Of a DNA stretch of 64,000 nt, positions 2,369-36,180 are shown piece after piece. The stretch is from Pirellulales bacterium (GTDB lineage Bacteria > Planctomycetota > Planctomycetia > Pirellulales > PALSA-1355), in contig JBFWOR010000012.1 in assembly GCA_050250435.1 (NCBI GenBank), forward strand, positions 1 to 64,000, in the 5' to 3' direction. The notes below the pieces were generated by a model. That model did no database searches, was not told the DNA's origin, and was given only the letters and a program-made list of their open reading frames with translations. The stretch's first letter is position 1, and each line of letters starts with the position of its first letter. Both the position numbers and the translations under genes were made by a program.

Positions 2369-4951
2369 ATGTTGCTTGTTAAGCGCACGGCGATGTTCGC
2401 CGCTTTGCTGATTCTGTTCATTGTCGGCCCCGCGGGTCCGGCCCGCGCCGTGGACTATGTGCGCGATATCCGTCCGATTCTCGCCGGCAAGTGCTTTGGG
2501 TGCCACGGCCCCGACGAGGAGGCGCGACAGGCGGGGCTGCGACTGGATGAGCGCGACGGTGCAATCACCCTGCTCGAAAGCGGCCACCCGGCGATCGTAC
2601 CGGGTAAACCGGATCAGAGTCAGCTGATTGTCCGCGTCGCGTCGAGCGATCCGCAATTCGCAATGCCACCGGGCGAGACGGGCAAACGGCTTTCGCCCCA
2701 GGAAGTCGCCACGCTTCGCGAGTGGATTTCCGCCGAGGCGCCCTACGCCAGGCACTGGGCGTACGTGACACCCGTGCGTCCTCCGCTGCCCACGGTGAGC
2801 CACAGGAACTGGCCGCGCGGAGCCATCGATCACTTCGTGCTGGCGCGGCTTGAATCCGAAGGGCTAGAGCCCTCGCCGCCAGCCGATCGCGCCACGCTCA
2901 TCCGGCGCGTGTCGCTTGATTTGACCGGCCTGCCACCCACGGGCGCCGAAGTGCAGGATTTCGTGCTCGATTCGCGCGCCGAAGCGTATGCCGAACTCGT
3001 CGACCGACTGCTGGCCAAGAGTGCCTACGGAGAGCGCTGGGCAGCGATGTGGCTCGACCTGGCGCGCTATGCCGATTCGCAGGGCTATGCACCGGACGGC
3101 CCGCGCACCATCTGGCGGTGGCGCGACTGGGTGATTTCCGCGCTCAACGCCAACATGCCGTACGATCAATTCACGATCGAGCAATTGGCGGGTGACCTGA
3201 TGGGCGAGCCGACCGCGATGCAAATCGCAGCGACCGGCTTTCATCGCAATACCCAGCTCAATACCGAAGGGGGCGTGAACCTGGAGGAATTTCGCCATGC
3301 CGCAGTCGTCGACCGCGTGAACACGACTTTTGCGGTCTGGATGGGCACCACGATGGCGTGCGCTCAGTGCCACCATCACAAGTACGACCCCTTCAGCCAG
3401 CGCGACTACTATCAGGTTTTCTCGATTTTCAACAACACCGACGACTTCAATACCGACCATCCCGTGCAGGAGATTCCGCGCGTCGGAGAGGACCTGGGAT
3501 TCGCGCAAATCAAGAGCGAGCTGTTGGCGATTCAAGCACAGTGGGACGAGCAAACCAAGGCGCGCGATGCCTTGCAAGGGGAATGGGAGAAGCAGGCGAC
3601 GGCAAATCAGGCGACTGCGAATCCGTCAACGGCAAATCCGTCGACCGCAAACCCGTCAACGGGCGGGGCGGGCAGCGAAAAGCCTGCCGCTGGCAACGAC
3701 ATGGCGGTGACGCAACCGAAAGAAATCGCCGACATCCTGGCCGTGGCCGCCGACAAGCGCGACAAGAACCAGCAGGATAAACTGCAGGCCTATCATCGCG
3801 GTCTGTCCGACGAATGGAAGGCGCTCGACGAGCGGCTCGCCGCGCTCAAACGCGAGTTTGATGACGTGAGCACCACGGTGCCCGTCATGCGCGACGGCAC
3901 GCCGCGGCCGACATATATCTATGTGCGCGGCGAATATCAAAGTCCCGGCAAGCCCGTAAATCCTGGCGTGCCGGCAGCACTGCACCCTATTCCGGCCGGC
4001 GCGCCGAGCAATCGTCTGGGCCTGGCGCGGTGGCTGGTCGACGCCAACAACCCGCTGGCGGCTCGGGTGGCCGTGAATCGTCTGTGGCAAGAGTTGTTCG
4101 GCACGGGCATTGTCGAGACGGCCGAAGAATTCGGCACGCAGGGAGAGCCGCCGTCGCATCCCGAGCTGTTGGATTATCTGGCCGTTGAGTATCGTGAAAG
4201 CGGCTGGGACACCAAGCACATTTTGCGGCTGATCGTCAACTCGGCCACGTATCAGCAAGCGGCAGCCGTGAGCCCTGCGTTGGCGCAGCGCGATCCCAAA
4301 AACCGGCTCCTGGCCCGCGGACCGCGCGTGCGCCTGGGCGCGGAGATGTTGCGCGATCAAGCGCTCGCAGTTTCCGGACTGCTGAGTGCCAAGATGTACG
4401 GCCCTCCGGTCCAGCCGGTGCAGCCGTCGCTTGGATTGGCGGCGGCGTTTGGATCGAGCACCGACTGGAACACGAGCGAAGGCGAAGACCGGCACCGCCG
4501 AGCGATCTACACACGCTGGCGGCGCAATTTGCCCTATCCTTCGATGATCGCATTTGACGCTCCCGAGCGCAACGTCTGCGCTATGCGTCGGATGCGCAGC
4601 AACACGCCGCTGCAGGCGCTGGTGACGCTCAACGATCCAGTGTTCGTCGAGTGCGCTCAAGGACTGGCGCGGCGCATCGTGCGCGAAGGGGGCAGCGACG
4701 TTACGGCCCGCGCAGGCTGGGCCCTGACGCAGGCCGTTGGCCGGCGGCCGACCAATGGCGAGGCGGAGCGACTGGCCGAGTTGTACGCCCAAGCGCGCCG
4801 GGAGCTCGAAGCCGATCCGGCCAAGGCTGAGGCGCTCTCGACCAAGCCGCTGGGCCCATTGCCCGACGGAATGAGTCCTCTCGATGCGGCTGCCTGGACC
4901 GTGGTAGCCAATGTGGTGCTCAATCTTGACGAGACGCTGACAAAACCATGA
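2369..4951 (+). CDS. Planctomycete cytochrome-c-domain protein (PSCyt1/PSCyt2/PSD1; DUF1549/DUF1553 family), secreted.
   Basis: N-terminal signal peptide (MLLVKRTAMFAALLILFIVGPAGPARA). Two CxxCH heme motifs (CFGCHGPDE, CAQCHHHKYDP). A family-typical DUF1553 C-terminus. The stop overlaps the next start as ATGA. Confidence 0.85.
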   Translation: MLLVKRTAMFAALLILFIVGPAGPARAVDYVRDIRPILAGKCFGCHGPDEEARQAGLRLDERDGAITLLESGHPAIVPGKPDQSQLIVRVASSDPQFAMPPGETGKRLSPQEVATLREWISAEAPYARHWAYVTPVRPPLPTVSHRNWPRGAIDHFVLARLESEGLEPSPPADRATLIRRVSLDLTGLPPTGAEVQDFVLDSRAEAYAELVDRLLAKSAYGERWAAMWLDLARYADSQGYAPDGPRTIWRWRDWVISALNANMPYDQFTIEQLAGDLMGEPTAMQIAATGFHRNTQLNTEGGVNLEEFRHAAVVDRVNTTFAVWMGTTMACAQCHHHKYDPFSQRDYYQVFSIFNNTDDFNTDHPVQEIPRVGEDLGFAQIKSELLAIQAQWDEQTKARDALQGEWEKQATANQATANPSTANPSTANPSTGGAGSEKPAAGNDMAVTQPKEIADILAVAADKRDKNQQDKLQAYHRGLSDEWKALDERLAALKREFDDVSTTVPVMRDGTPRPTYIYVRGEYQSPGKPVNPGVPAALHPIPAGAPSNRLGLARWLVDANNPLAARVAVNRLWQELFGTGIVETAEEFGTQGEPPSHPELLDYLAVEYRESGWDTKHILRLIVNSATYQQAAAVSPALAQRDPKNRLLARGPRVRLGAEMLRDQALAVSGLLSAKMYGPPVQPVQPSLGLAAAFGSSTDWNTSEGEDRHRRAIYTRWRRNLPYPSMIAFDAPERNVCAMRRMRSNTPLQALVTLNDPVFVECAQGLARRIVREGGSDVTARAGWALTQAVGRRPTNGEAERLAELYAQARRELEADPAKAEALSTKPLGPLPDGMSPLDAAAWTVVANVVLNLDETLTKP
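3599..3658 (+). repeat. Four tandem 15-bp units (acggcaaatccgtcg-like) encoding the low-complexity linker ATANQATANPSTANPSTANPST inside the PSD1 gene.
   Basis: Direct inspection shows units at 3599-3613, 3614-3628, 3629-3643 and 3644-3658. Confidence 0.6.
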
Positions 4952-6414
4952 AACACTCTGCCCCAGCGTCGCAGTTCGAGCGCTTGTTGCTGCAAACGCG
5001 CCGGCATTTCCTGCGCGATACGGCGTTGGGCCTGGGCGCGACGGCACTTGCCCAACTGGAGCAACCAGCCGCCGCGGCCGGCTTGCCGGTCGTCGATCCG
5101 TTCCTTCCCAGGCAGCCCCATTTCGCCCCGCGCGCGAAGAGCGTGATCTATCTGTCGATGTCGGGCGGGCCACCGCATCTCGACTTGTTCGACTATAAAC
5201 CGGAGTTGGTGCGCCGCGATGGCGAGGATTGCCCCGAGTCGCTCACCAAGGGCAAGCAGTTCGCCTTCACCAGCGGCACACCCAAGTTGCTGGGCACGCG
5301 GCAAAAGTTCGCACAGCATGGGGAAAGTGGCGCCTGGATGTCGCAGGCGCTGCCGAATCTGGCCGCCGTGGCCGACGACCTGACCATCATCAAGTCAGTT
5401 TGGACGGAGCAATTCAATCACGGCCCTGCTGAGCTATTGCTCTATACCGGCTTCCCCCGCGCGCAAGATCGAGCGTCTATGGGCTCCTGGGTCACGTACG
5501 GCCTGGGATCCGACAGCCGCGATCTACCGGGTTACATTGTGTTCGTCTCGGGCAGATCGTTACCGAGTGCCGGCAAGGCGGCTTGGGGCAGTGGATTTCT
5601 GCCGTCGGTGTACCAGGGCGTGCAATGCCGCACCGGCGGTGATCCGGTGCTGTACCTTTCCAACCCCGAGGGGATGGACCGAGCTCTGCGGCGCTTGAGT
5701 GTGGATGCGGTGAACGATTTGAATCGGATCGAATTGCAAAAGCTCGGCCAGCCGGAAACCGCCACACGAATGGCGCAATATGAACTGGCGTTTCGCATGC
5801 AGACCATCGTGCCCGAGACGATGGACATCTCGAACGAGCCCGCGCATACGCTGGCGGATTATGGTGCCGAGCCGGGGGCGGCGACCTTTGCCAACAATTG
5901 TTTGCTCGCCCGCCGACTCGTCGAGCGCGGCGTGCGATTCGTGCAATTGTTCGACTGGGGGTGGGATTTCCACGGCACGAACGCGGGCGAGGAAATCGAG
6001 GCCGGTTTGGTGAACCGCACGAAGTCGATGGACAAGCCGGTCGCGGCGCTGATTCGTGATCTCAAGCGGTGCGGCCTGCTCGACGAGACTCTGGTGGTGT
6101 GGTCGGGCGAATTCGGTCGCACGCCGTTTCGAGAAGGGCGCACCAAAGACGGCAAATTCCTGGGCCGTGACCATCACCCGTTTTCCAACACCATCTTTAT
6201 GGCCGGTGCCGGACTGAAACCGGGCATTAGCTACGGCGCGACCGACGAACTCGGTTGGGCGCCGGTCGAAAAGCCCGTCCACCCGCACGACCTGCAAGCC
6301 ACCATTCTGCACCTCCTGGGATTGGACCACACTCAACTAACGTACCGCTTCCAGGGGCGCGATTTCCGTTTGACCGATGTCCGCGGACAAGTGATCCACG
6401 ACATTCTGGCTTGA
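4948..6414 (+). CDS. DUF1501 (sulfatase-like) family protein with a Tat signal.
   Basis: RRHFLRDTALGLGATALA twin-arginine signal. Typical DUF1501 blocks (SGGPPHLDLFDYKP, DHHP). It is translationally coupled to the upstream PSD1 gene. Confidence 0.85.
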   Translation: MKHSAPASQFERLLLQTRRHFLRDTALGLGATALAQLEQPAAAAGLPVVDPFLPRQPHFAPRAKSVIYLSMSGGPPHLDLFDYKPELVRRDGEDCPESLTKGKQFAFTSGTPKLLGTRQKFAQHGESGAWMSQALPNLAAVADDLTIIKSVWTEQFNHGPAELLLYTGFPRAQDRASMGSWVTYGLGSDSRDLPGYIVFVSGRSLPSAGKAAWGSGFLPSVYQGVQCRTGGDPVLYLSNPEGMDRALRRLSVDAVNDLNRIELQKLGQPETATRMAQYELAFRMQTIVPETMDISNEPAHTLADYGAEPGAATFANNCLLARRLVERGVRFVQLFDWGWDFHGTNAGEEIEAGLVNRTKSMDKPVAALIRDLKRCGLLDETLVVWSGEFGRTPFREGRTKDGKFLGRDHHPFSNTIFMAGAGLKPGISYGATDELGWAPVEKPVHPHDLQATILHLLGLDHTQLTYRFQGRDFRLTDVRGQVIHDILA

Positions 6415-13014: not shown

Positions 13015-13075
13015 TGGGCTGTTTACAATCCACAGCGTTTCGCACATTTGGCCGCGCCAAGGAGTGGTTAACAGA

Positions 13076-15280
13076 ATGTTTACCACCGCGACGTGGGTAC
13101 TAGTGGCTGATTGGTCGAGTCGATGGTCCGCTTTGCAAGAGAACTTCTCTTCGTCCGCGGAACTGGTGTTCCTGCTGATCGTGGGTCTCTTGTTTCTGTG
13201 GGAGTTGATGGGGCTGCGCTATATCCCCAACAACTACGTGGGAATCGTCGAGAAGCTCTGGTCGCGCAATGGCTCGGTGACCGAGGGCAGCATCATCGCC
13301 ATGGCGGACGAGGCCGGCTTTCAGGCCGAGGTGCTGCGCGGCGGCTTTCACTTCGGCTTGTGGCGCTGGCAATATCGCATCCATCGCGTGCGATTGGTGA
13401 CGATTCCGCAGGGCAAGATTGGGTATATCTACGCCCGCGACGGCGAGCCGCTGGAAGCGAGTCAGACGCTGGGCCGCGTGGTCGAGTGCATGAACTTTCA
13501 AGATGCGCGCGCTTTTCTCGGCGGCGACGACGCCGTGGGACATCGGCGCGGGCAGCGCGGCCGCCAACGAGCCGTCTTGCGCGAAGGCGTGTACGCCATC
13601 AACCTGGCGCTGTTCGTGGTCATGACGGAAAACGACGTCTACCTGTTGCGACCACTGCACGACAAGCAGGCGCTGGCCATGCTGGCCGGCTGGCAACGCG
13701 AGTTGGCGGCCATTGCCGGCTTCAGTCCGGTGGTGATCGGCGCCGACGTCGAAGTGCCGGACCCGGTGCATGCCGACGTCTTGCGTAGCGTCGACTCGAT
13801 CGGCATTGTCACCGTGCATGACGGCCCGTCATTGCTGCCGGGCGAGATCATTGCGCCGCCGGTCGGCACGAGCGCCGAGGAGCCGCACTTCCACAACAAC
13901 TACCAGAACACGGAGGCGTTTCTGGCCGCGGGCGGGCGGCGCGGCCGCCAGTATGTGCCGCTCACCGACGGCACCTACTTCATCAACCGCTGGTTTGCCA
14001 CGGTGGAGACGATTGCCAAGACCGTGGTGCCCATCGGCTACGTCGGCGTCGTGGTGAGTTACTTTGGCCAGATCGGCCGCGACCTTTCCGGCACGGCCTT
14101 CCGCCATGGCGAACGCGTGGCCGAGGGACATCGCGGCGTGTGGGAACACGCGCTGGGACCGGGCAAGTATGCGTTCAACTCCTACGCCGGGAGCATCGTG
14201 CTGGTGCCAACTACGAACTTCGTGTTGCACTGGATTACCGGCCGCACGGAAACCCATCGCTACGATGAGAGCCTGCGATCGATCGACCTGGTGACCAAGG
14301 ATGCTTATGAGCCGCTGCTGCCGCTGTCCGTAGTGGTGCACATCGACTATCAGAAAGCGCCCAACGTCATTCAGCGCTTCGGCGACGTGAAGAAGCTGAT
14401 TACGCAGACGCTCGATCCGATGTTGAGTGCCTACTTCCGCGACGTGGCGCACAAATGCACCATGCTCCAGCTCTTGCAAGAGCGCGATCAAATTCAGCGC
14501 GATGCGCGCAACGAGCTGCGGCAACGGTTTCAGGAGTTCGACATCGAATGCGTTGACGTGTTGATCGGCAAACCCGACACGGCCGAGGCCGGCGGCAAGA
14601 TCGAGACGCTGCTGGAACAGCTGCGATTGCGGCAGCTGTCGATCGAGCAGATCGAAACGTTCGAGCGGCAACGGGCCGCGGCCGAAAAACAGCGCGGGCT
14701 GAGCGAGGCGCAGGCCCACGCCGCCAAGCAGACCGAGCTGACCAATTCGGCAATTCAGATTCAGATCGCCGAGAACCAGGGCGAGGCTGATCTGGCGCAG
14801 GCTCGCAAACGGGCCGAGCAATTGCTGGTCACCGCTCGGGCCGACAGCCAGCAGCGCGTGCTGGCCGGCAAGGGTGAAGGCGCGCGGGTGCTGCAAACCG
14901 GTTTGGCGGAAGCCTCGGTGCTGCTGCGCAAGATCGGCTCGTTTGGCGACCCGCGACTGTACGCGGTGCTGTCGGCGGCCGAGCGATTGTCGGCCAGCAG
15001 TCAGCCGCTGGTGCCCGAGCGCGTGTTCGTCGCCGGTGGCGGCGAAAACGGTCATGCGACCGGCGCCAGCCAAGGCCTGCTCGGCACGCTGATCAGTTTG
15101 CTGGTGGCTGAGAAGTCGGGATTCCAGCCCGCGGGCGACGGCGCGTTCGCCGGTCTGGAGGAAATGACGGAGCGCATGACGCGCGACGCCATGGAGTCGA
15201 TGCAACAGGCGATCGGCGTTGGGTCGCCCGCGGTGGCCGTGACTACGGCGGTCGACGCGAAAGTGATTGAGCAGAAGTGA
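13076..15280 (+). CDS. SPFH/band-7 domain protein, flotillin-like.
   Basis: N-terminal TM, an SPFH-like core, and a long Ala/Glu/Gln-rich coiled coil (AEKQRGLSEAQAHAAKQTEL...). ATG at 13076 has AAGGAG 11 nt upstream. The track's 13064 start is a GTG. Confidence 0.8.
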   Translation: MFTTATWVLVADWSSRWSALQENFSSSAELVFLLIVGLLFLWELMGLRYIPNNYVGIVEKLWSRNGSVTEGSIIAMADEAGFQAEVLRGGFHFGLWRWQYRIHRVRLVTIPQGKIGYIYARDGEPLEASQTLGRVVECMNFQDARAFLGGDDAVGHRRGQRGRQRAVLREGVYAINLALFVVMTENDVYLLRPLHDKQALAMLAGWQRELAAIAGFSPVVIGADVEVPDPVHADVLRSVDSIGIVTVHDGPSLLPGEIIAPPVGTSAEEPHFHNNYQNTEAFLAAGGRRGRQYVPLTDGTYFINRWFATVETIAKTVVPIGYVGVVVSYFGQIGRDLSGTAFRHGERVAEGHRGVWEHALGPGKYAFNSYAGSIVLVPTTNFVLHWITGRTETHRYDESLRSIDLVTKDAYEPLLPLSVVVHIDYQKAPNVIQRFGDVKKLITQTLDPMLSAYFRDVAHKCTMLQLLQERDQIQRDARNELRQRFQEFDIECVDVLIGKPDTAEAGGKIETLLEQLRLRQLSIEQIETFERQRAAAEKQRGLSEAQAHAAKQTELTNSAIQIQIAENQGEADLAQARKRAEQLLVTARADSQQRVLAGKGEGARVLQTGLAEASVLLRKIGSFGDPRLYAVLSAAERLSASSQPLVPERVFVAGGGENGHATGASQGLLGTLISLLVAEKSGFQPAGDGAFAGLEEMTERMTRDAMESMQQAIGVGSPAVAVTTAVDAKVIEQK

Positions 15281-15311: not shown

Positions 15312-15627
15312 CAGATGGCAGTGTTCGATTCGCCCTTGCCGTCGGCGTTCCGGCGGCAAGGGTTTTGTTTGCGCGCTGGGCGAGTCGGGATCACACACGA
15401 GCCTGCAGCGCAAGCGACGGGAAACGACCAAGAACCCTCGCTGGCGCTGCGGGTTAGTGAATGCGGGCTTGCGGCTGTTCGTGTGGGTAGCCCAGACGCC
15501 GACCTGCTGCGTCTGGGCCAGCCGAGCAGAATTCGGCCCGCCGGCGGCAGCTTGACCCGGGCGAATTGTCTGATAATCTAGCAGAACCTGCCTGCTCCGC
15601 CGTCCCGCCTGCCAGGAGCCACCACGC

Positions 15628-28035: not shown

Positions 28036-29172
28036 TCACCGTGCGCGGATTGCGCCGCGGACCCGCAGGCGCTGTTGCGGGCCTTCGTTCTCCTTGACGA
28101 ACGCAAAGCCGGAGGGATACTCGCCCCAGTTGGCGCTGGGCACACCGTTGCGAACCGAGCCGGCGAACGTGGCTTGCGGCCCCACGATCCGCACGCCCAC
28201 GACCTTGCTTTCGCCCGGCAGGGCCGCGCCGGCATGCACCGCGGCCAGTCCCAGGTGGGAATCATAGGTATAGATGTCGGTGCCCCAGACGGCTCCCGGC
28301 TGCATGCCGGGCCGGGGCGCCTGCACTTTGAAAAAGAAGGTTTGGCCGATTTTCTCGCGGTAATCGGTGAGCGTGCCTGGATCGGCCAGCACGTTTTGCT
28401 GAGCGGCCTGCTCCTCCAGCCCCGTGCTCAGGTGGCGCAAATGCACGAGCGTCAGCTGCTGGTTGCCGAACAGTGCGGTTTCGACGTTCAGGCTCGGCAG
28501 GTCGATGGTGCCGGCGATTTGCGACTTATCGGTGTATACAACATCCTCGGTCCGGGCTTGGAGCAGCTCTTCGGGGACGTCCTTGCGAATGCGCTCGAGC
28601 AACAGTTCCGAGCGACGGGCCACTTCCGGATCTTCGCTCTTGGCGCTCTTGGTCAAGGCCGCATAGGCGTTGGCACCCAGGGAGAGCAACTCGGCGCTGG
28701 CCGCCTCGCGCGTGGCGTACTCTTCGGCCCCCAGCTTCTCGATGGCGGCATTCGTGCGCTCGACGATCTCGCCGGCAACGCGCGTGGCGAAATCGATCTG
28801 GCGAATCTCCGCCGCCGGAATCAGCAGCTTGCCGAACTCCGTCTGCAGCGGAATCTTCTCGTCGAGCAGGCGCACCTTGAGCATGCTGCCGTCGCTCGAG
28901 CGAATGTCAAAACGGTCTTTGGGTTGATTGGCCGCGGCCGCGGCGATTTCCTTGGTCGCGGTTTCCGCGGGCTTCGCGTCGGCCGGCGCCGCTGCGGGCG
29001 CCTGTTGCGCTTCGGCCGCGGGGGCCGCCGCGGCGGGTGGCGGTTGAAGTTCGATCAAGCCCTCCAGTGCGAGCGCCCGCGCGCTCGAGACGGCTATCAG
29101 CCACGTGCTGCCCATGCGCAGCGCAGCTCGCAGTTTGCCGTGCAACGAGTTGCGATTGAGACCGCTGGCCAT
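28036..29172 (-). CDS. Secreted LCCL-domain protein.
   Basis: N-terminal signal-like segment and an Ala/Pro/Gln-rich linker. The C-terminal VWGTDIYTYDSHLGLAAVHAG matches the LCCL core (G-TD-YT-DS-x-AAVHAG). Confidence 0.6.
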   Translation of the reverse strand: MASGLNRNSLHGKLRAALRMGSTWLIAVSSARALALEGLIELQPPPAAAAPAAEAQQAPAAAPADAKPAETATKEIAAAAANQPKDRFDIRSSDGSMLKVRLLDEKIPLQTEFGKLLIPAAEIRQIDFATRVAGEIVERTNAAIEKLGAEEYATREAASAELLSLGANAYAALTKSAKSEDPEVARRSELLLERIRKDVPEELLQARTEDVVYTDKSQIAGTIDLPSLNVETALFGNQQLTLVHLRHLSTGLEEQAAQQNVLADPGTLTDYREKIGQTFFFKVQAPRPGMQPGAVWGTDIYTYDSHLGLAAVHAGAALPGESKVVGVRIVGPQATFAGSVRNGVPSANWGEYPSGFAFVKENEGPQQRLRVRGAIRAR

Positions 29173-29476
29173 CGGTGCCTCTCCTTGCTCAAGTGCCTGT
29201 GGTAGCTCTCTGTTCCGCGCTGCACGCTGTCGACGCGTGCGACTTTTAATATAGTCGATTCCCCGGCATCAGGCGGGGAGCGTGGGCACTAGAACTGGGG
29301 GCACCTGGTCGGCGACAAAGCTCACCGCCGGGGCGTGCACTTGCGGGTCGTCGAACGGCCGGACGTTCGGTGGCAGAAGCGGCTTAACCAGCGAGACTTG
29401 CGTCGAAAATGGCCGGCAGTAACAAACGCCGAAATCGCGCCCTCGATGGCGGCCACCGACGGCCATGTCGCGGCGG

Positions 29477-30286
29477 CTACGGCTGCCGTGGAGGCTCGTC
29501 GTCGTGACCCGCGGCCGCGGCGTCGGTGGCGTCGCGATGAAACTCCCACAAGATGCTCTGCCCGCTCGTGTCCCCGAAGAATCGGACCAGCGTCCGCTTC
29601 TGCAAATGATTCAAGAGGTGAACGGTTTCCTGGAGGCGCGTTTTGCGGGCCAGTTCTTCCTGGCAGGGGAGCGGATTGTCGATGCGTGATTGCCAGCCGG
29701 CTTCCTCGAAGGCGGCCAGAACGGACTCCTGGTCCAGCGACGCGACGTTGTAGCGTTTCACGAGCATCGAGCCCACGCGCAGCTCGCGCCGATTTCGATC
29801 CCAGCGCGGCGTGCGCGCCAGCGAGTAAGCGGGCCGCTCGCGCAGCTCTTGGGCCGGCGCGGCTGGTTGCGCAGGAGCATCTTCGGCTTCGACTCCGCCG
29901 CGCAGATCATAGGCTAGTTCCACGCCGGCCGCTGTCAGCACGAAACACGAGCGGCGGCCAAAGTGTGGCCGGCCGGAATCGAGAAAGTCGCGCGTGCCTT
30001 CCCGCATCCGCGGAATTTCCAACGCGTGCTCGACCAGCTCGCGCGCCAGCAACCAACGCAGTTCGCGGTTCGTGAGCTTCAGGCGGCGCAGCGTCTCGAT
30101 TTCGACGGCGAAATCCCAATCGCTGGTGTCGAGATCGCGTGCGTATTCATGCGCTTCCAGCAGGGCTGCCAAGGCGGCTTGAACGTGCGCGGACAGGAGG
30201 CTCTTGGCGGACTCGCTGGAGTGCAGGTCGCCGTCGGCTCGGGCGGCGCGGCGCGATTCTACGGCCGACATTCTCAAGGCTTCCAT
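29477..30286 (-). CDS. Hypothetical protein, paralog A of a divergently arranged pair.
   Basis: 269 aa. It shares with 30623-31423 the blocks LTNxxLRWLxAxxxVEH, FxxxxRPxFG/RRTP, VLxAFEExGW and RIDxPLP. Confidence 0.6.
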   Translation of the reverse strand: MEALRMSAVESRRAARADGDLHSSESAKSLLSAHVQAALAALLEAHEYARDLDTSDWDFAVEIETLRRLKLTNRELRWLLARELVEHALEIPRMREGTRDFLDSGRPHFGRRSCFVLTAAGVELAYDLRGGVEAEDAPAQPAAPAQELRERPAYSLARTPRWDRNRRELRVGSMLVKRYNVASLDQESVLAAFEEAGWQSRIDNPLPCQEELARKTRLQETVHLLNHLQKRTLVRFFGDTSGQSILWEFHRDATDAAAAGHDDEPPRQP

Positions 30287-30380
30287 GGCAACGTCTCCAC
30301 GTCGAGAGAATCATCAAGGTTGGAATCATCAGAGGGGGTCTCGTAGTGTTGCCGTTCTCTGTCCTGCAGGATTTACCGCC

Positions 30381-30418
30381 AAAAAAAGCCCGCACTCACC
30401 GCCTGTGGCGAGTCGGGC
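30381..30418 (-). terminator. Intrinsic terminator on the minus strand: a GC-rich imperfect stem (GCCCGACTCGCC...GGCGGTGAGTGCGGGC) followed by U7.
   Basis: The plus strand reads aaaaaaaGCCCGCACTCACCGCC-tgt-GGCGAGTCGGGC. A 7-nt homopolymer is very rare in this GC-rich window. It lies inside the divergent intergenic region, ~90 nt upstream of the minus-strand ATG at 30286. Confidence 0.45.
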
Positions 30419-30622
30419 CTACTACCCTAGAGGTATGCTTGTCCTAAGCGTTCATAGCATACCGCTTTGACGGTCATTGTCAACAATTCCGGAGATGCCG
30501 GCCATGACGCCGGCAAATGTCGCGGAAAAGTAAGATTCGTTTGGCAAAACTCTCGACACGCGGCAGCGCTCGACTATGATCTTCATAAGCCTCCCCCCAA
30601 CGAGTCCCGCCTCCAATCGCAC

Positions 30623-31423
30623 ATGTTGCCCGTGCTGGCCACCGACTTGATGTCGCGAAGCGAAGTCGCGCGCGGTCAATCAATTCCGCGCCTCCCCTCC
30701 GAACTGCGCTCGCATCTGCAGCCTGCGCTGAGTCTGTTGTTGCAGGCGTGGGACTACGCCATCGAGTTGGAGCAGGACGTGTGGAACATGGCGGTCGAGC
30801 TGGACGTGTTGCGCGCCGCCAAACTGACCAACAGCGACTTGCGTTGGCTGGCGGCGAAAGGTTACGTCGAGCACGGCGTGGAAGCCACCGGCCTCGACGA
30901 CAGCGTGCGGCACTTTCGGCGCACGCCGTTGCCGATGTTCACGGAATTGACGTGCGTGGTGTTGACGCCGATCGGCGCTGCTGCGGCGCGCGAGCTGTGC
31001 GAGGCTGCGGCCGCGGGTGAGAACATAGGCCCCGCGGTTGCGTTGTGCGAAATTGGCGGCCTCCAGGAGGTCCAGCGCCGACCGAACTGGGATCAACAGC
31101 GCCGTCAGCTGCGCGTCGGCGGTCAGATTGTCAAAGAGTTCAAGCTTCCTTCGCCGAATCAAGAGACCGTGCTGATGGCCTTCGAAGAAGAGGGCTGGCC
31201 GCCGCGGATCGACGATCCGCTGCCGCCGGTTGGTCACCTCGATTCGCGGCGCCGCTTGCACGACACCATCAAGGCACTCAATCGCAAACAGAAGCGGCTC
31301 TTGATCCGCTTTCGCGGCGACGGCAGCGGCGAAGGAATTCGCTGGGAGCCCGCCATCGAGCCGGCCGAGAGCCGGCCCGCCACGCTCGCCAGCGACCCGT
31401 ACGGCAACGGCGCAACTGTATAG
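30623..31423 (+). CDS. Hypothetical protein, paralog B, divergently transcribed from paralog A.
   Basis: Start at the internal ATG MLPVLATDL (30623). Homologous to 29477-30286 over the whole length. Confidence 0.6.
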   Translation: MLPVLATDLMSRSEVARGQSIPRLPSELRSHLQPALSLLLQAWDYAIELEQDVWNMAVELDVLRAAKLTNSDLRWLAAKGYVEHGVEATGLDDSVRHFRRTPLPMFTELTCVVLTPIGAAAARELCEAAAAGENIGPAVALCEIGGLQEVQRRPNWDQQRRQLRVGGQIVKEFKLPSPNQETVLMAFEEEGWPPRIDDPLPPVGHLDSRRRLHDTIKALNRKQKRLLIRFRGDGSGEGIRWEPAIEPAESRPATLASDPYGNGATV

Positions 31424-31679
31424 CGCGCGATGTGTAATTGCACTCGCGCCGCGCTGCTTTGCCGAGCGCTTCTCCGGTCAGTACCCGCTGGTGCGCCCCC
31501 ATCGTTCCCCTCTGTTCACCTTGGCCGACACCACTATGCGACTATGCTTTGCAGTTGCGAACGGCCGTCCCCCGCTGTGGTTTAACCGATATTCGATGGA
31601 CCGGACTTAGGGAGGTACTGGCCGCGGCGGGGCAGAGAGCCGGGCGGATGTTCGCCCGCATCCTCTCCAGGTCGACCGT

Positions 31680-32534
31680 ATGGCACACTTCGAGCCTCGC
31701 GGATTCGGATGGATTCCGAGTCTCCCGGACTTCCGCGACTATAGCGCCGGTTCAGCCCCGGCGGACGAACTGTTGGCACAACTGCGCGACGTCGCGCCGG
31801 TGACGGCGCCGCGGCCGCCGACTGTCGACTTGCGCGAGTACTTTCTCCCCGCAGGCGATCAACTCCAGCTGCACGCTTCAGCGGCCTGCGCTTGCGCCAG
31901 TCTGGTGGAATACTTCGAGCGGCGCGCCAACGGCGAAATGCTGCGTCCGGCACGGCTGTTCCTTTATCAGAATGCGCAGCGGCTGGCCGGCGTGCGCGGC
32001 AACGTGGGAATGGACCTGCGCAGCACGCTCAAAGCCATGGTTCGCTGCGGCATTCCGCCCGAACGTTATTGGCCTTACGAGGTCGACAGGCTGGATGTCA
32101 CGCCGGACCCGTTTCTGTATTCCTTTGTCGAACCTTACCGGGGCGTCAGTTATTTGCGGCTGGACGGTCGCCAAACGAGCGGCGGCGAAAACTTGCAGAT
32201 CGTGAAGGCGTTTCTGGCCGCGGGATTTCCCTGCACCTGCGGTTTTCCGGTGCCGGATTCCATCGCGGGCGATCCGGATATTCCCTACCGTCCGACGTTC
32301 GACAGCATTGTCGGCGGACAAGCGGTAGTCGCCGTGGGATACGACGATCGCTGGCTGCGCGGATCGCGCGGCGCATTGCTGGTGCGCAGCTCCTGGGGCA
32401 GCGATTGGGGCGAAAGCGGCTACGGTTGGTTGCCATACGCCTACGTCGAAGAGCGCCTGGCGATCGATTTTTGGACGCTGGTGCATCCGGCGTGGATTGC
32501 ATCGGGCGAATTCGACGCGCCCGATCTCCCCTGA
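31680..32534 (+). CDS. Papain-like (C1 family) cysteine-peptidase homolog, probably non-catalytic.
   Basis: C1 signatures are recognisable, but GGQAVVAVGYDD replaces GGHAV..VGY (His->Gln) and RSSWGSDWGESGYGWLPY replaces NSWG...GY (Asn->Ser). The Cys/Gln region DQLQLHASAACACAS is atypical. Confidence 0.7.
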   Translation: MAHFEPRGFGWIPSLPDFRDYSAGSAPADELLAQLRDVAPVTAPRPPTVDLREYFLPAGDQLQLHASAACACASLVEYFERRANGEMLRPARLFLYQNAQRLAGVRGNVGMDLRSTLKAMVRCGIPPERYWPYEVDRLDVTPDPFLYSFVEPYRGVSYLRLDGRQTSGGENLQIVKAFLAAGFPCTCGFPVPDSIAGDPDIPYRPTFDSIVGGQAVVAVGYDDRWLRGSRGALLVRSSWGSDWGESGYGWLPYAYVEERLAIDFWTLVHPAWIASGEFDAPDLP

Positions 32535-32710: not shown

Positions 32711-34276
32711 ATGGTCAGCCGCACACCGGCCAACGGTCACAATTCTACTAGCCGATCGGCCGCGGCTGGAACGCGCGACTTCTTCCGAGTCTTGTTTCGG
32801 CACAAGCGGAAAATGGTGGCGTTCTTCCTGACGTCGATGACGCTGGTGGTGCTGGGGTTGCTGTTCTTCCCGCGCACGTACAAGTCGGATGCACGCCTGT
32901 TCGTGCGGTTGGGCAAGGAAAGCGTGGGCCTCGATCCGACGGCGGCCTTGCAACAAACGGTGTCGGTGAACGATTCGCGCGAAAGCGAAATCAACTCCGT
33001 CGTCGAATTGTTGCGCAGCCGCGCAGTGCTGGATGATGTTGTGAAGCGCCTGGGCGCCGACGAGATCCTGGGCACGCAGCCCGGCGAGTCGACCTCGTGG
33101 TTGCAGATGGTCAAGGCGCCGGCCGACATCGCGCGCACGTGGCTGTATGGAAATATTGGCGCCGAAGAGCGTGCGGTGGCGCGACTGGAAAAGGCGATCA
33201 CGATTGGCGCGCCGCGCCGCTCGAACGTGGTGCTCGTATCGGCCCAGGCACGCGATCCCCAGCTGGCCCAGCGCATTCTGCAGGCCTTGATCGAGTCGTA
33301 CACCGAACAGCACGTGGACGCGAACCGCACGGAAGGTTCGCACGCGTTCTTCGTCACGCAGTCTGACCTGCTGCAAGAACAATTGCGGCGTGCCAACGAA
33401 GAGGTGCGCGACGCCCGCAATGCAAGCTCGCTGGTATCCATCGACGGCGAACGACAGAACGTACAAAGCCAGGCGACCTCGATCGAGGCGGCGATCCTGG
33501 CCAACCAGCGCGACCTGGCTGCGTCGGACGCCCGTATTGCGGCGCTCAAACGGCAGCTGGAAGAGTTACCGCACGACCTGGTCGCCGAACAAACGGCCGG
33601 CTTGCCGAACCAGGCGGCCGACGCCATGCGGAACGAACTGTACCGCCTGCAAATCGAGGAAAAAGACATCAGCTCGCGCTTTACCAGCCTGCACCCGAGC
33701 GTGATTGCCATTCGCCGGCAGGTGGCCGAGACGCAGAAGATTTTCGATGAGCAGCAGGACAGTCGCAGCCAGACGACGCGGCGTCCCAGCGTGGTGCATC
33801 AGCACGTGCAGACGGAGCTGTCGACGGCCACGGCCCTGGCCGCCTCGCAGCGGGCTGCGGCCGCCTCGCTCGAGCAGCAGTTCGACGCGGTGCGCTCGCG
33901 CATGCGTTCGCTCAACGACAACGAATTCCGCATTGCCGAGCTGTCGCGCAAGGCCGAGCTTTTGGAAACGACCTATCGCACGTACGTCCGCAACCGCGAA
34001 CAGGCCCGTATCGATCAGGAGCTGGCCAGCGGTCGCATATCGAACATCAACGTCGTGCAGCCGGCGACGATCGTGGCCAAGCCCTCCAGCCCGCGCGTCA
34101 TGCTGACGCTGGCGATGGGTTTGTTCGCTTCGACGTTCGGCGCGGTGCTGTTGGCCTTCGTGGCAGAGCACTTCGATCGCTCGCTCAAGACGCAGGAGCA
34201 GATCGAGCACGAGCTGGGCATTCCCGTCTTGTTCTCCGTTCCCCGTAGCCGTGGACACGAGCTACTCCCGCATTAA
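32711..34276 (+). CDS. Polysaccharide co-polymerase (Wzz/GumC/exopolysaccharide chain-length determinant family), without a fused kinase domain.
   Basis: N-terminal TM. A Wzz-like periplasmic coiled-coil region (RIAALKRQLEELPHDL...). C-terminal TM GLFASTFGAVLLAFVAEHFD. 521 aa. Confidence 0.8.
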   Translation: MVSRTPANGHNSTSRSAAAGTRDFFRVLFRHKRKMVAFFLTSMTLVVLGLLFFPRTYKSDARLFVRLGKESVGLDPTAALQQTVSVNDSRESEINSVVELLRSRAVLDDVVKRLGADEILGTQPGESTSWLQMVKAPADIARTWLYGNIGAEERAVARLEKAITIGAPRRSNVVLVSAQARDPQLAQRILQALIESYTEQHVDANRTEGSHAFFVTQSDLLQEQLRRANEEVRDARNASSLVSIDGERQNVQSQATSIEAAILANQRDLAASDARIAALKRQLEELPHDLVAEQTAGLPNQAADAMRNELYRLQIEEKDISSRFTSLHPSVIAIRRQVAETQKIFDEQQDSRSQTTRRPSVVHQHVQTELSTATALAASQRAAAASLEQQFDAVRSRMRSLNDNEFRIAELSRKAELLETTYRTYVRNREQARIDQELASGRISNINVVQPATIVAKPSSPRVMLTLAMGLFASTFGAVLLAFVAEHFDRSLKTQEQIEHELGIPVLFSVPRSRGHELLPH

Positions 34277-34309
34277 TCCTCGACGACTCGCCCCCAAGGA
34301 TCGTTTGGC

Positions 34310-34990
34310 ATGATCACGACAACGCAGGATGCAGCCGGCGTCTCCGTCAGCACCGGCCGACGGGACGCGGGTGTTGCCGAAGACTATTACTCGCTATTCC
34401 ACTGGTTGCGATCGGTCGGCGGACCGTCAGAGAGTGCGCCGATGTCGGTCGGCATCACCAGTTGCGCGCCTCGCGCGGGCGTGAGCACGGTGGCCGCCAA
34501 TCTGGCGATCGCGGCCGCGCAGGTCAGCGATCAGCCCGTGTTGCTGTTGGACCTGGGCAGCCCGCGACAAGCGATGACGACGCGCCTGTCGGCAGCCGGC
34601 GACGGCTTCCGCGTGGTTTCTGACCCGGCACAAATCAGTGCTTCGATTCGGCCTTCGCGGTTCGAGAACCTGTCGGTGCTGGACGCCAGCACGGCGGGCA
34701 GCCTGCGCGGCTGGAACCTCGACTGCAACAAGGCCACGGAATTGCTCCGCGCCGTGGAAAACGATTTTGGTTTCATCGTGGTCGATTTGCCGCCGGTGGA
34801 TTCCAGCCAGTGTTTCGTCACCGCCGGCGCCTTGCACGGCGTGCTGCTGGTAATGGAAGCCGAGCGGACGCGTTCCGATATCGCGGTGCGTGCCAAGCAA
34901 CGGTTGGCAGATTCGCGCGCGAACATTCTGGGCATCATCCTCAACAATCACCCGCAACACCTTCCGCAATGGCTCGAGACGAGGCTCTAG
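34310..34990 (+). CDS. BY-kinase/CpsD-like P-loop ATPase-domain protein with degenerate Walker A and A'.
   Basis: GITSCAPRAGVSTVAANLA has Val where GxGKS/T has Lys. VLLLDLGSPRQ replaces the DxD A' motif. Walker B FGFIVVDLPPV is conserved. There is no C-terminal Tyr cluster. Confidence 0.6.
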   Translation: MITTTQDAAGVSVSTGRRDAGVAEDYYSLFHWLRSVGGPSESAPMSVGITSCAPRAGVSTVAANLAIAAAQVSDQPVLLLDLGSPRQAMTTRLSAAGDGFRVVSDPAQISASIRPSRFENLSVLDASTAGSLRGWNLDCNKATELLRAVENDFGFIVVDLPPVDSSQCFVTAGALHGVLLVMEAERTRSDIAVRAKQRLADSRANILGIILNNHPQHLPQWLETRL

Positions 34991-35103
34991 TTTACAAGAC
35001 CGCAGGGAGCACCCTGGCCGCGTGGCAGGCAAGCCCGCGATACACCGCTTGAGACACCTACCCCCCAACCGATTTTCCCACCCGCGACTCGACAGGACGA
35101 CCG

Positions 35104-36180
35104 ATGATTCGCATTTGGAATATATTCAAGGGGCGACTGCCGTGGGCGGGCAGCGGCGCGCCTCATGACCAGTTGCACTCGACCGAGCGGATGCGCGCGA
35201 TCCTGGATCGCGAGCGGATGCGAGCCGATCGCGGCAACGCCAGCTTTGCGCTGTTGACCTTCACGATCCATCGTTCCGCCGAAGCCGGTGACCTGGCAAC
35301 GCTGGCCGGCATTCTCAGTGACCGGATTCGCGCTACCGATGATGCGGGCCTGTTGGGCGCGCGTCGCGTGGGCGTGGTACTACCCGAAACGCCCGCGGAA
35401 GGCGCCTGGAAGCTCTCGCAAGACGTGTGCGACCTGCTGCCGCAGCGCATGCGCCGGCCCGATCGAGAAGTCTACGTATATCCTTCGCTCGACGATGCCG
35501 CCGACCCGACGGCCGAAGTCGAAGAAGATGAGACGCCGCAGGGCCGCCCCGCGCGTTCCATGCACGTGTTGTTCGCACAGCCGTTGCCGGCCTGGAAGCG
35601 AGCCATCGACGTGATCGGCGCGTTTACGGCACTGGTGCTGCTGTCGCCGTTGCTGTTGATCGTGGCCGTGGCAATCAAGCTGACTTCGCCCGGGCCGGTG
35701 ATTTTTCGCCAGGGTCGCGATACGATCGCAGGCCGGCGTTTCACGATGTACAAGTTTCGCACGATGGTTCCTGACGCCGAGCGGGCGAAGGCAGCCCTGC
35801 GACAATTCAGCGAGCAGGATGGTCCGGCGTTCAAGATGACGAACGATCCGCGGATCACGCGGCTCGGCAAGTTCCTGCGCGCGACCAGCATCGACGAGCT
35901 GCCGCAGTTGTTCAACGTGTTGCTGGGAGACATGTCGCTGGTCGGCCCCAGGCCCCTGCCATGCGACGAATCAGGCGATTGTGAGGTCTGGCAGAGACGA
36001 CGGCTGGATGTGACCCCCGGCATCACTTGCATTTGGCAGGTCCACGGCCGGTCGACCGTCTCCTTCTCCGAATGGATACGGATGGATCTCCGCTACGTAG
36101 AGTCGCGATCGCTGGCCAACGACCTATGGTTGTTGGTGCAGACGATACCGGCGGTCGCCTTGCGTCGCGGTGCGCGCTGA
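35104..36180 (+). CDS. Polyprenyl-phosphate sugar phosphotransferase (bacterial sugar transferase, WbaP/EpsB-like) with an N-terminal degenerate GGDEF-like domain.
   Basis: C-terminal KFRTM...DELPQLFNVLLGDMSLVGPRP motifs. Residues 20-150 align to the GGDEF domain of the DGC at 44260-45063. The RATD I-site is aligned, but GGDEF is replaced (ARRVGVV) and the first metal-binding Asp is lost. Confidence 0.8.
   Translation: MIRIWNIFKGRLPWAGSGAPHDQLHSTERMRAILDRERMRADRGNASFALLTFTIHRSAEAGDLATLAGILSDRIRATDDAGLLGARRVGVVLPETPAEGAWKLSQDVCDLLPQRMRRPDREVYVYPSLDDAADPTAEVEEDETPQGRPARSMHVLFAQPLPAWKRAIDVIGAFTALVLLSPLLLIVAVAIKLTSPGPVIFRQGRDTIAGRRFTMYKFRTMVPDAERAKAALRQFSEQDGPAFKMTNDPRITRLGKFLRATSIDELPQLFNVLLGDMSLVGPRPLPCDESGDCEVWQRRRLDVTPGITCIWQVHGRSTVSFSEWIRMDLRYVESRSLANDLWLLVQTIPAVALRRGAR

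Follow-up and report, generated by a model that had tools for sequence, protein, structure and literature searches.

A conserved promoter–hairpin–U-tract unit upstream of predicted winged-helix genes in Planctomycetes, a candidate leader attenuator or small RNA

Does the hairpin that lies between two divergent paralogous genes of a Pirellulales bacterium end a small RNA of its own, or does it attenuate the gene that follows it? The question arises from a 64,000-nucleotide (nt) stretch of DNA (GenBank assembly GCA_050250435.1, contig JBFWOR010000012.1, positions 1 to 64,000; hereafter the window), in which a 336-nt spacer separates paralog A, on the minus strand, from paralog B, on the plus strand. 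An earlier note on this DNA had read a minus-strand hairpin followed by UUUUUUU in the spacer as an intrinsic terminator, belonging either to a small RNA (sRNA) or to an attenuator in the 5′ leader of paralog A. Comparison with related loci strongly supports that either/or—the hairpin is conserved, covaries, follows a promoter, and precedes an A-type gene on the same strand. Our preferred reading, which we consider to have about an even chance of being right, is that the hairpin and its U7 tract are the terminator of a promoter-proximal leader attenuator of A-type genes, with a small RNA as its product.

In the window, the hairpin comprises 12 pairs with one bulged G on the 3′ side and a 6-nt loop, and its folding energy of about −21 to −24 kcal/mol (−23.7 in a 55-nt context; z = −2.7) was equalled in two of 200 shuffled sequences. 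On the transcribed strand, a GC-rich hairpin stands directly before a U run, which is what defines an intrinsic terminator, and folding, our own scan, and covariation all bear out this part of the earlier note. The same note had singled out the tract as the only A7 run in non-coding sequence, some 90 nt upstream of the A start codon; it is the sole A7 or T7 run on either strand of the whole 64 kb and ends 95 nt upstream of the A ATG (30286), and shuffled sequences average 2.5 such runs, so the run by itself is not significant. A simple terminator scan missed the hairpin because of the bulge in its stem; a stricter search of our own for hairpins followed by T runs returned ten sites on the two strands of the window, among which this hairpin and a plus-strand site at 15333–15370 alone are both textbook in form and intergenic. 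The latter, just past an open reading frame (ORF; 13064..15280), has a perfect 13-bp stem of −25.4 kcal/mol (TTTTGTTT). Two clean intergenic terminators in the window suggest that this genome uses canonical intrinsic terminators, if rarely.

A scan of positions 29000–32000 for the sigma70 consensus found two sites where 0.3 were expected, both inside the A/B spacer. One, TTGACA-16-TATGCT, matches 10 of the 12 consensus positions and lies about 30 nt upstream of the hairpin on the same strand; the other, the promoter of paralog B, lies at the opposite end of the AT-richer spacer and is separate from the leader RNA. From the geometry of the first, we infer a transcription start at 30449 ± 3 and a 3′ end within the U tract, giving an RNA of about 66–72 nt rather than the 150–250 nt that the earlier note had expected. 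This predicted RNA consists of a small 5′ hairpin (P1), a linker, and the terminator hairpin, with a minimum free energy of −29.7 kcal/mol (z = −2.7); over 30378–30449, the minus strand folds to −29.7 kcal/mol, as against −22.4 for the plus strand. Within P1, 74% of cells are paired and three of the four pairs show double changes, with some members folding inconsistently; the AGGA that it carries (30445..30442) is the best-conserved sequence of the RNA body, and at least 14 of the 16 aligned instances have it.

The rest of the spacer is less structured than first proposed. The ~200 nt of AT-rich sequence described between terminator and paralog B do form a real dip in GC content (0.49–0.57 over 30250–30600, against 0.647 for the 64-kb window), but what they hold is two divergent promoters and a variable stretch (30486–30550, upstream of the −35 hexamer, unconserved in sequence and varying in length among related loci), not further conserved RNA structure. 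A second hairpin placed there by the earlier note exists as a palindrome, with GGTATGCT at 30432–30439 and AGCATACC at 30456–30463, so its placing was off and its gap is 16 nt, not 17. As an RNA hairpin, we rejected it: it is unconserved, and its 5′ arm on the minus strand is the −10 hexamer, so the hairpin would go untranscribed. A TTGAC...GTCAA repeat in the promoter spacer was dropped as window-specific, judged by eye in the aligned sequences, and a sigma-dependent pause element was rejected, since the conserved YAGGA is not −10-like (that is, not TAnnnT).

We sampled relatives at 160 loci, 80 from species-representative genomes and 80 from metagenomes. Already in the 80 genome loci, our own terminator scan found similar hairpins with U runs upstream of many relatives of the A gene. 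Aligned, the unit reads (G)TTGACA(A), a 16-nt spacer, TAnnnT and, about 10 nt later, (Y)AGGA, followed by a variable linker ending in GGG(U/C), a GCCCG(R)C.../...G(bulge)CGGGC hairpin, and the U run. Of 20 instances, 16 have 16 nt between the −35 and −10 hexamers, and a three-locus group around locus L008 has 18 nt; in the second copy of locus L003 (L003b), our script found no TAnnnT. Covariance models R1 and R2, built from the aligned instances and run over ~1 Mb of loci, score the window copy at 100.9 and 96.6 bits, respectively, and together recover 18 strong, distinct instances in metagenomic assemblies of Pirellulales and Planctomycetia (Table 1). Weaker matches of the same architecture occur at L055, L018, L107, and L087, and the L018 form is shared, by alignment, by L008 and L023, neither of which the models reported; R2 added no further strong members among the 160 loci. 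Nearly all instances have a U-rich tract, which is degenerate in L013 (3809–3917), L087 (232–340), and L161 (1032–1137); these three keep promoter, hairpin, and gene.

The comparative alignment that the earlier note had proposed finds the hairpin and U run in related spacers, with covariation, and the Rfam scan that it had also proposed matched no family: Rfam 15 gave no hit in 30371–30622 at E ≤ 10, and none in 15 instance loci at gathering score. The motif, whether leader or sRNA, is real, conserved, absent from Rfam, and previously uncatalogued.

We counted covariation on a model-guided alignment of 16 sequences, which is fitted to the structure and so inflates the counts somewhat. In the terminator helix, 87.7% of cells form standard pairs and both sides have changed at 10 of 16 pairs, values that 500 column shuffles never reach; when the 3′ partners are shifted by one to three columns, pairing falls to 21–49%. 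The raw sequences show the same compensatory changes: at one stem position, the A-U of the window, L014, and L015 is replaced by G-C in L004, L029, and L006, and another position appears as UA, AU, GC, CG, or GU in different members. Almost all members retain the lone bulged nucleotide in the 3′ strand of the stem. Several stem positions carry G-U pairs, which on the opposite strand would be A-C.

These strand-specific pairs, together with the U run, argue against a purely DNA-level palindrome. Were the inverted repeat an operator for dimeric winged-helix proteins A and B, as their predicted DNA-binding fold and the other repeated boxes of the spacer (CTCGAC, TGATGATTC) might encourage one to think, covariation would not be expected to preserve pairing rather than sequence, nor would a strand-specific U run be conserved beside it, nor the minus strand fold 7 kcal/mol better than the plus; we regard this explanation as very improbable. 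A further alternative, that the hairpin terminates a small minus-strand protein gene such as the 75-codon ORF at 30679..30452, we consider negligible. ORFs of 67–75 codons do end 34–60 nt upstream of the hairpin, but they contain the conserved promoter and overlap the promoter and start of paralog B, and in 12 related loci we found no conserved ORF before or overlapping the terminator, the upstream ORFs varying in frame, length, and stop position.

The unit is tied to a gene as closely as to its own structure. Each model match immediately precedes a same-strand family gene, with 54–117 nt from terminator to ATG, and none lies elsewhere in the ~1 Mb searched; in L003, a Planctomycetaceae metagenome-assembled genome (MAG), each of two tandem family genes has its own element (3698–3811 and 5908–6023). 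By the sigma70 rule, the only one applied, no second promoter stands between terminator and ATG in any of 20 leaders. The terminator is accordingly placed as in an attenuator, between the only recognised sigma70-like promoter and the start codon. That members with a poor U tract retain promoter, hairpin, and gene fits the leader promoter being the promoter of the gene, and the hairpin may in some lineages have a role beyond termination.

The same unit could instead be a stand-alone gene for a trans-acting sRNA of ~70 nt, the linked regulator using a separate, unrecognised promoter, and the RNA acting on other mRNAs or titrating a protein through single-stranded AGGA and GGGUAGUA. It is complete from promoter to terminator, with a perfect −35 hexamer and a strong U7–U9 terminator; sRNAs are usually built in this way, from a small 5′ hairpin and a terminator hairpin; and a clear antiterminator is missing. 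GGA motifs lie in loops of several members, and CsrA and FliW have been reported in Planctomycetes (PMC4682653). With the conserved AGGA in or near the P1 loop and a Shine-Dalgarno GGAG held in a small hairpin, a CsrA-type interpretation of these motifs is possible, at one to four GGA per RNA, close to what composition predicts. An sRNA acting in trans should, however, be conserved independently of the neighbouring gene, and in the ~1 Mb searched we saw no such independence: the element always precedes a same-strand family gene, including at both L003 copies, with no promoter-like site in between, and members without a U tract keep the arrangement. Nor did we identify complementarity to a target, no genome-wide target search having been made. 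We think an independent sRNA gene possible but unlikely.

In the attenuator reading, RNA polymerase would start at the strong sigma70-type promoter, transcribe the 5′ AGGA hairpin and a short G-rich linker and, after ~70 nt, meet the 12-bp bulged GC hairpin and U7 tract, where most transcripts would stop in vivo and release the ~70-nt RNA; only those polymerases that read through would go on, over a further ~95 nt, to reach the ribosome-binding site and the A coding sequence. Expression of A would depend on this read-through, and the attenuator would set, and probably modulate, that expression. Control would most likely be exerted in trans, by a factor that stabilises a weak mini-hairpin overlapping the 5′ arm of the terminator or acts on the bulged stem; the winged-helix protein is one possibility, some other RNA-binding protein a second. 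This mini-hairpin, a GGGU/GCCC helix of 4–5 bp, is predicted in nascent-RNA folds of most of the 17 instances tested, and its pairing is kept as GAGC/GCUC in L001 and L002 and as GGUA/UGCC in L008; helix lengths sum to 79, as compared with 65.1 ± 3.3 after shuffling, by a statistic that ignores relatedness among members. The GGGU block is thus a weak candidate for an antiterminator, and since the mini-hairpin is too weak to act alone, regulated read-through would need a bound factor.

Several observations weigh against attenuation. The mini-hairpin is the sole antiterminator candidate, is far weaker than the terminator, and cannot compete with it unaided; folding the 17 instances gave no convincing mutually exclusive structure. 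The terminator looks efficient (U7–U9), which would suit a dedicated sRNA gene equally well, and three members have a degenerate U tract. The promoter test, moreover, was limited to the sigma70-like consensus and would miss an alternative-sigma site between element and gene. Sequence alone does not separate the sRNA reading from the attenuator reading.

Two further explanations may be considered. The arrangement might be a constitutive damper, in which a strong promoter and a leaky terminator unconditionally fix a low level of the regulator or a ratio of RNA to protein. Its architecture would be identical to that of the attenuator, and the ~30 nt before the hairpin offer no credible alternative structure or sensor domain. 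Conservation of the AGGA, the GGG block, and the stem bulge nevertheless goes beyond the requirements of a bare terminator and extends to the downstream leader, and a weaker promoter would be a simpler route to low expression; we see a damper as a minor possibility. Alternatively, the ~70-nt RNA and the winged-helix protein downstream might form an ancestral module, in which the protein binds the leader—at the AGGA hairpin, the GGGU mini-hairpin, or the bulged stem, switching termination off—or the abundant terminated RNA titrates the protein, a proposal that we hold to be doubtful. We know of no case in which a winged-helix fold antiterminates.

Among known systems, the functionally closest, by analogy, are premature-terminator attenuators, the 5′-leader intrinsic terminators surveyed across bacteria by Naville and Gautheret (2010; PMC2965389). 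As in these, a Rho-independent terminator lies between promoter and start codon and is kept across orthologous leaders; unlike in these, we found no comparable antiterminator, leader peptide, or recognisable aptamer, and only ~30 nt precede the hairpin. That distance is too short to hold an aptamer or a leader peptide, and a leader-peptide attenuator was rejected on this ground and for lack of a conserved short ORF; a riboswitch or other Rfam family was set aside in the absence of any match to a curated covariance model.

The lambda late promoter PR′ is followed immediately by a terminator and gives rise to 6S RNA. As at such lambdoid promoters, the terminator here comes almost at once, making a short RNA the default, and the downstream gene is predicted to need read-through; unlike there, the unit is chromosomal, precedes a single regulator gene, and shows neither a Q-like antiterminator nor a −10-like pause element in our searches. 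The by-product RNA of a lambdoid PR′ can itself be regulatory; in Shiga-toxin phage, a late promoter with an immediate terminator yields the small RNA StxS (PMC7547250).

Protein-mediated antitermination by BglG and SacY at their RAT sites offers a further parallel: the leader before the terminator is short, and a weak hairpin shares sequence with the 5′ arm of the much stronger terminator that follows it, against which it could prevail only with a protein bound. RAT spans ~29 nt, whereas the antiterminator candidate here has 4–5 bp, and no CAT/PRD protein is linked to it. In rnTrpL and in SreA and SreB, leader-derived sRNAs act in trans and the sensor, a leader peptide or an aptamer, is known; the predicted terminated leader would likewise be a discrete sRNA with its own promoter and terminator ahead of the gene that it attenuates, but we identified no sensor in it. 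Type III toxin-antitoxin systems such as ToxIN, which pair a tandemly repeated antitoxin RNA with an endoribonuclease toxin, share the order promoter, short RNA, terminator, protein gene, the terminator there setting the ratio of RNA to protein. We rejected this class because a search of the RNA found no tandem repeats and the protein is a predicted tandem winged-helix protein, not an endoribonuclease. ANTAR targets consist of two tandem hairpins, the second of which overlaps the terminator, with hexaloops that carry A at position 1 and G at position 4; these too were rejected, since P1 loops measure 5–9 nt and mini-hairpin loops 3–9 nt, and no hexaloop pattern is conserved. Rhodopirellula-1 (Weinberg 2010), the one planctomycete candidate that we found in the literature, is a hairpin with a conserved base of AACxA...GAU..GAAC / GUUAUC...CGUU, and its published alignment is unlike ours in sequence and architecture. 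The mechanism class of the element is already known; the motif itself is new.

Table 1. Features of the A/B spacer and its flanking genes, with the loci that carry strong instances of the unit
Feature	Position	Strand	Remarks
−35 hexamer, TTGACA	30478..30483	minus	promoter scan; invariant in all aligned instances
−10 hexamer, TATGCT	30456..30461	minus	16 nt past the −35 hexamer
Predicted short transcript, ~66–72 nt	30381..30449	minus	from promoter geometry and terminator
5′ hairpin P1, GCUU-AGGAC-AAGC	30437..30449	minus	moderate support
GGGU block	30424..30427	minus	can pair with GCCC, the first four nt of the terminator 5′ arm
Terminator hairpin, GCCCGACUCGCC-ACAGGC-GGUGAGU(G)CGGGC	30418..30388	minus	31 nt, GC-rich; fold, scan, covariation
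U7 tract	30381..30387	minus	AAAAAAA on plus; no gap after the hairpin
Downstream leader	30287..30380	minus	almost invariant in close relatives; RNAalifold, repeat search
Paralog A, predicted tandem winged-helix protein	29477..30286	minus	269 aa; gene served by the leader
Paralog B	30623..31423	plus	266 aa; 44% identical to A; without leader element
Promoter of paralog B, TCGACA-16-TATGAT	30553..30580	plus	promoter scan; conserved in paired loci
Strong instances of the unit			window, L001, L002, L003 (two copies), L004 (= L083), L006, L013, L014, L015, L017, L029, L081, L082, L090, L136, L161, L162

The distribution of the element bears on the history of the two paralogs. Searches with tblastn place it between a divergent A/B pair in the window, L004, L029, L014, L015, L017, L081, and L136 (L161 has a divergent 257-aa gene upstream; tblastn covered the other pairs), and ten loci—L001, L002, L006, L008, L013, L018, L023, L055, L082, and L090—have an unpaired gene that nonetheless bears the element. 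In paired loci, B orthologues are 63–67% identical to the window B and A orthologues 34–48% identical to A; judged by these identities, A, which bears the leader, is evolving much faster than B. Unpaired genes are about equidistant from A and B, and the leader is therefore probably older than the A/B duplication and was kept by A. The unit from −35 to U tract is 58–75% identical to the window copy, the A coding DNA 57–64%, and the A protein 34–45%.

The downstream leader, between terminator and A start codon, is 68–70% identical to that of the window in close relatives, in which protein A is 36–45% identical. It contains AGAGAAC, two copies of TGATGATTC, a CTCTCGAC box, and the Shine-Dalgarno sequence GGAG (30298..30295). 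The direct repeat, GAATCATCA on the plus strand and TGATGATTC on the minus, occupies 30308–30316 and 30323–30331, 15 nt apart, and is partly conserved in L004, L029, and L014. A UCUCU/GGAGA hairpin (30309..30294, minus strand) encloses the A Shine-Dalgarno sequence, and AGAGAA upstream is complementary to UUCUCU; both pairings are invariant in the close group and so provide no covariation evidence. Such features may be translational RNA switches or DNA operators. Three candidates in this stretch were set aside: an off-frame ATGATG "uORF" was treated as ordinary high-GC noise, GAGAAC was not retained as an ECF-type promoter element, since L014 and L081 have lost its AAC, and a long-range GGCAAC/GUUGCC pairing beside the start codon is not kept in L029, L014, or L015.

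Boxes related to those of the A leader recur at the other end of the spacer. The promoter region of paralog B (30550–30580, plus strand) has a CTCGAC box at the −35 hexamer and again just 5′ of the −10, and its inverted form, the CTCTCGAC that also marks the −35 of paralog B, lies in the A leader at 30301–30308, ~20 nt ahead of the A start codon. The CTCGAC/CTCTCGAC boxes may be shared operators for winged-helix proteins. As for the proteins themselves, sequence searches of Pfam, NCBIfam, and PDB placed A and B in no family, and the fold search alone was informative, predicting DNA-binding proteins with tandem winged helices; their homologues are confined to Planctomycetes, and the window's copy carries the annotation "hypothetical protein" in a Pirellulales MAG.

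Around the pair, A is followed by a same-strand gene for a 378-aa LCCL-domain protein in the window (28036–29172, minus) and likewise in a related metagenomic contig, L162 (2443–3579), which suggests conserved synteny and possibly an operon. On the other side, 3′ of B, lie polysaccharide-export and synthesis genes (32711–36180, plus), among them a Wzz/GNVR chain-length determinant and a Bac_transf sugar transferase; A and B may be regulators of this cluster. Scanning for tRNA and tmRNA genes returned none in the window.

To our knowledge, very few regulatory RNAs have been described in Planctomycetes, and their promoters and terminators are poorly charted. The unit described here provides a covariation-supported example, from this phylum, in which a consensus sigma70-type promoter and an intrinsic terminator of canonical form would work together as one conserved element, and adds a leader or sRNA motif new to Rfam that is tied to an uncharacterised, multi-copy family of predicted tandem winged-helix regulators, one A/B pair of which adjoins a polysaccharide-export cluster. 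At ~110 nt of DNA, it offers a compact and tractable system for the control of such regulators. If the module proposal were true, it would imply winged-helix-based antitermination or a decoy RNA and would represent an experimentally tractable class of cis-regulatory RNA specific to Planctomycetes.

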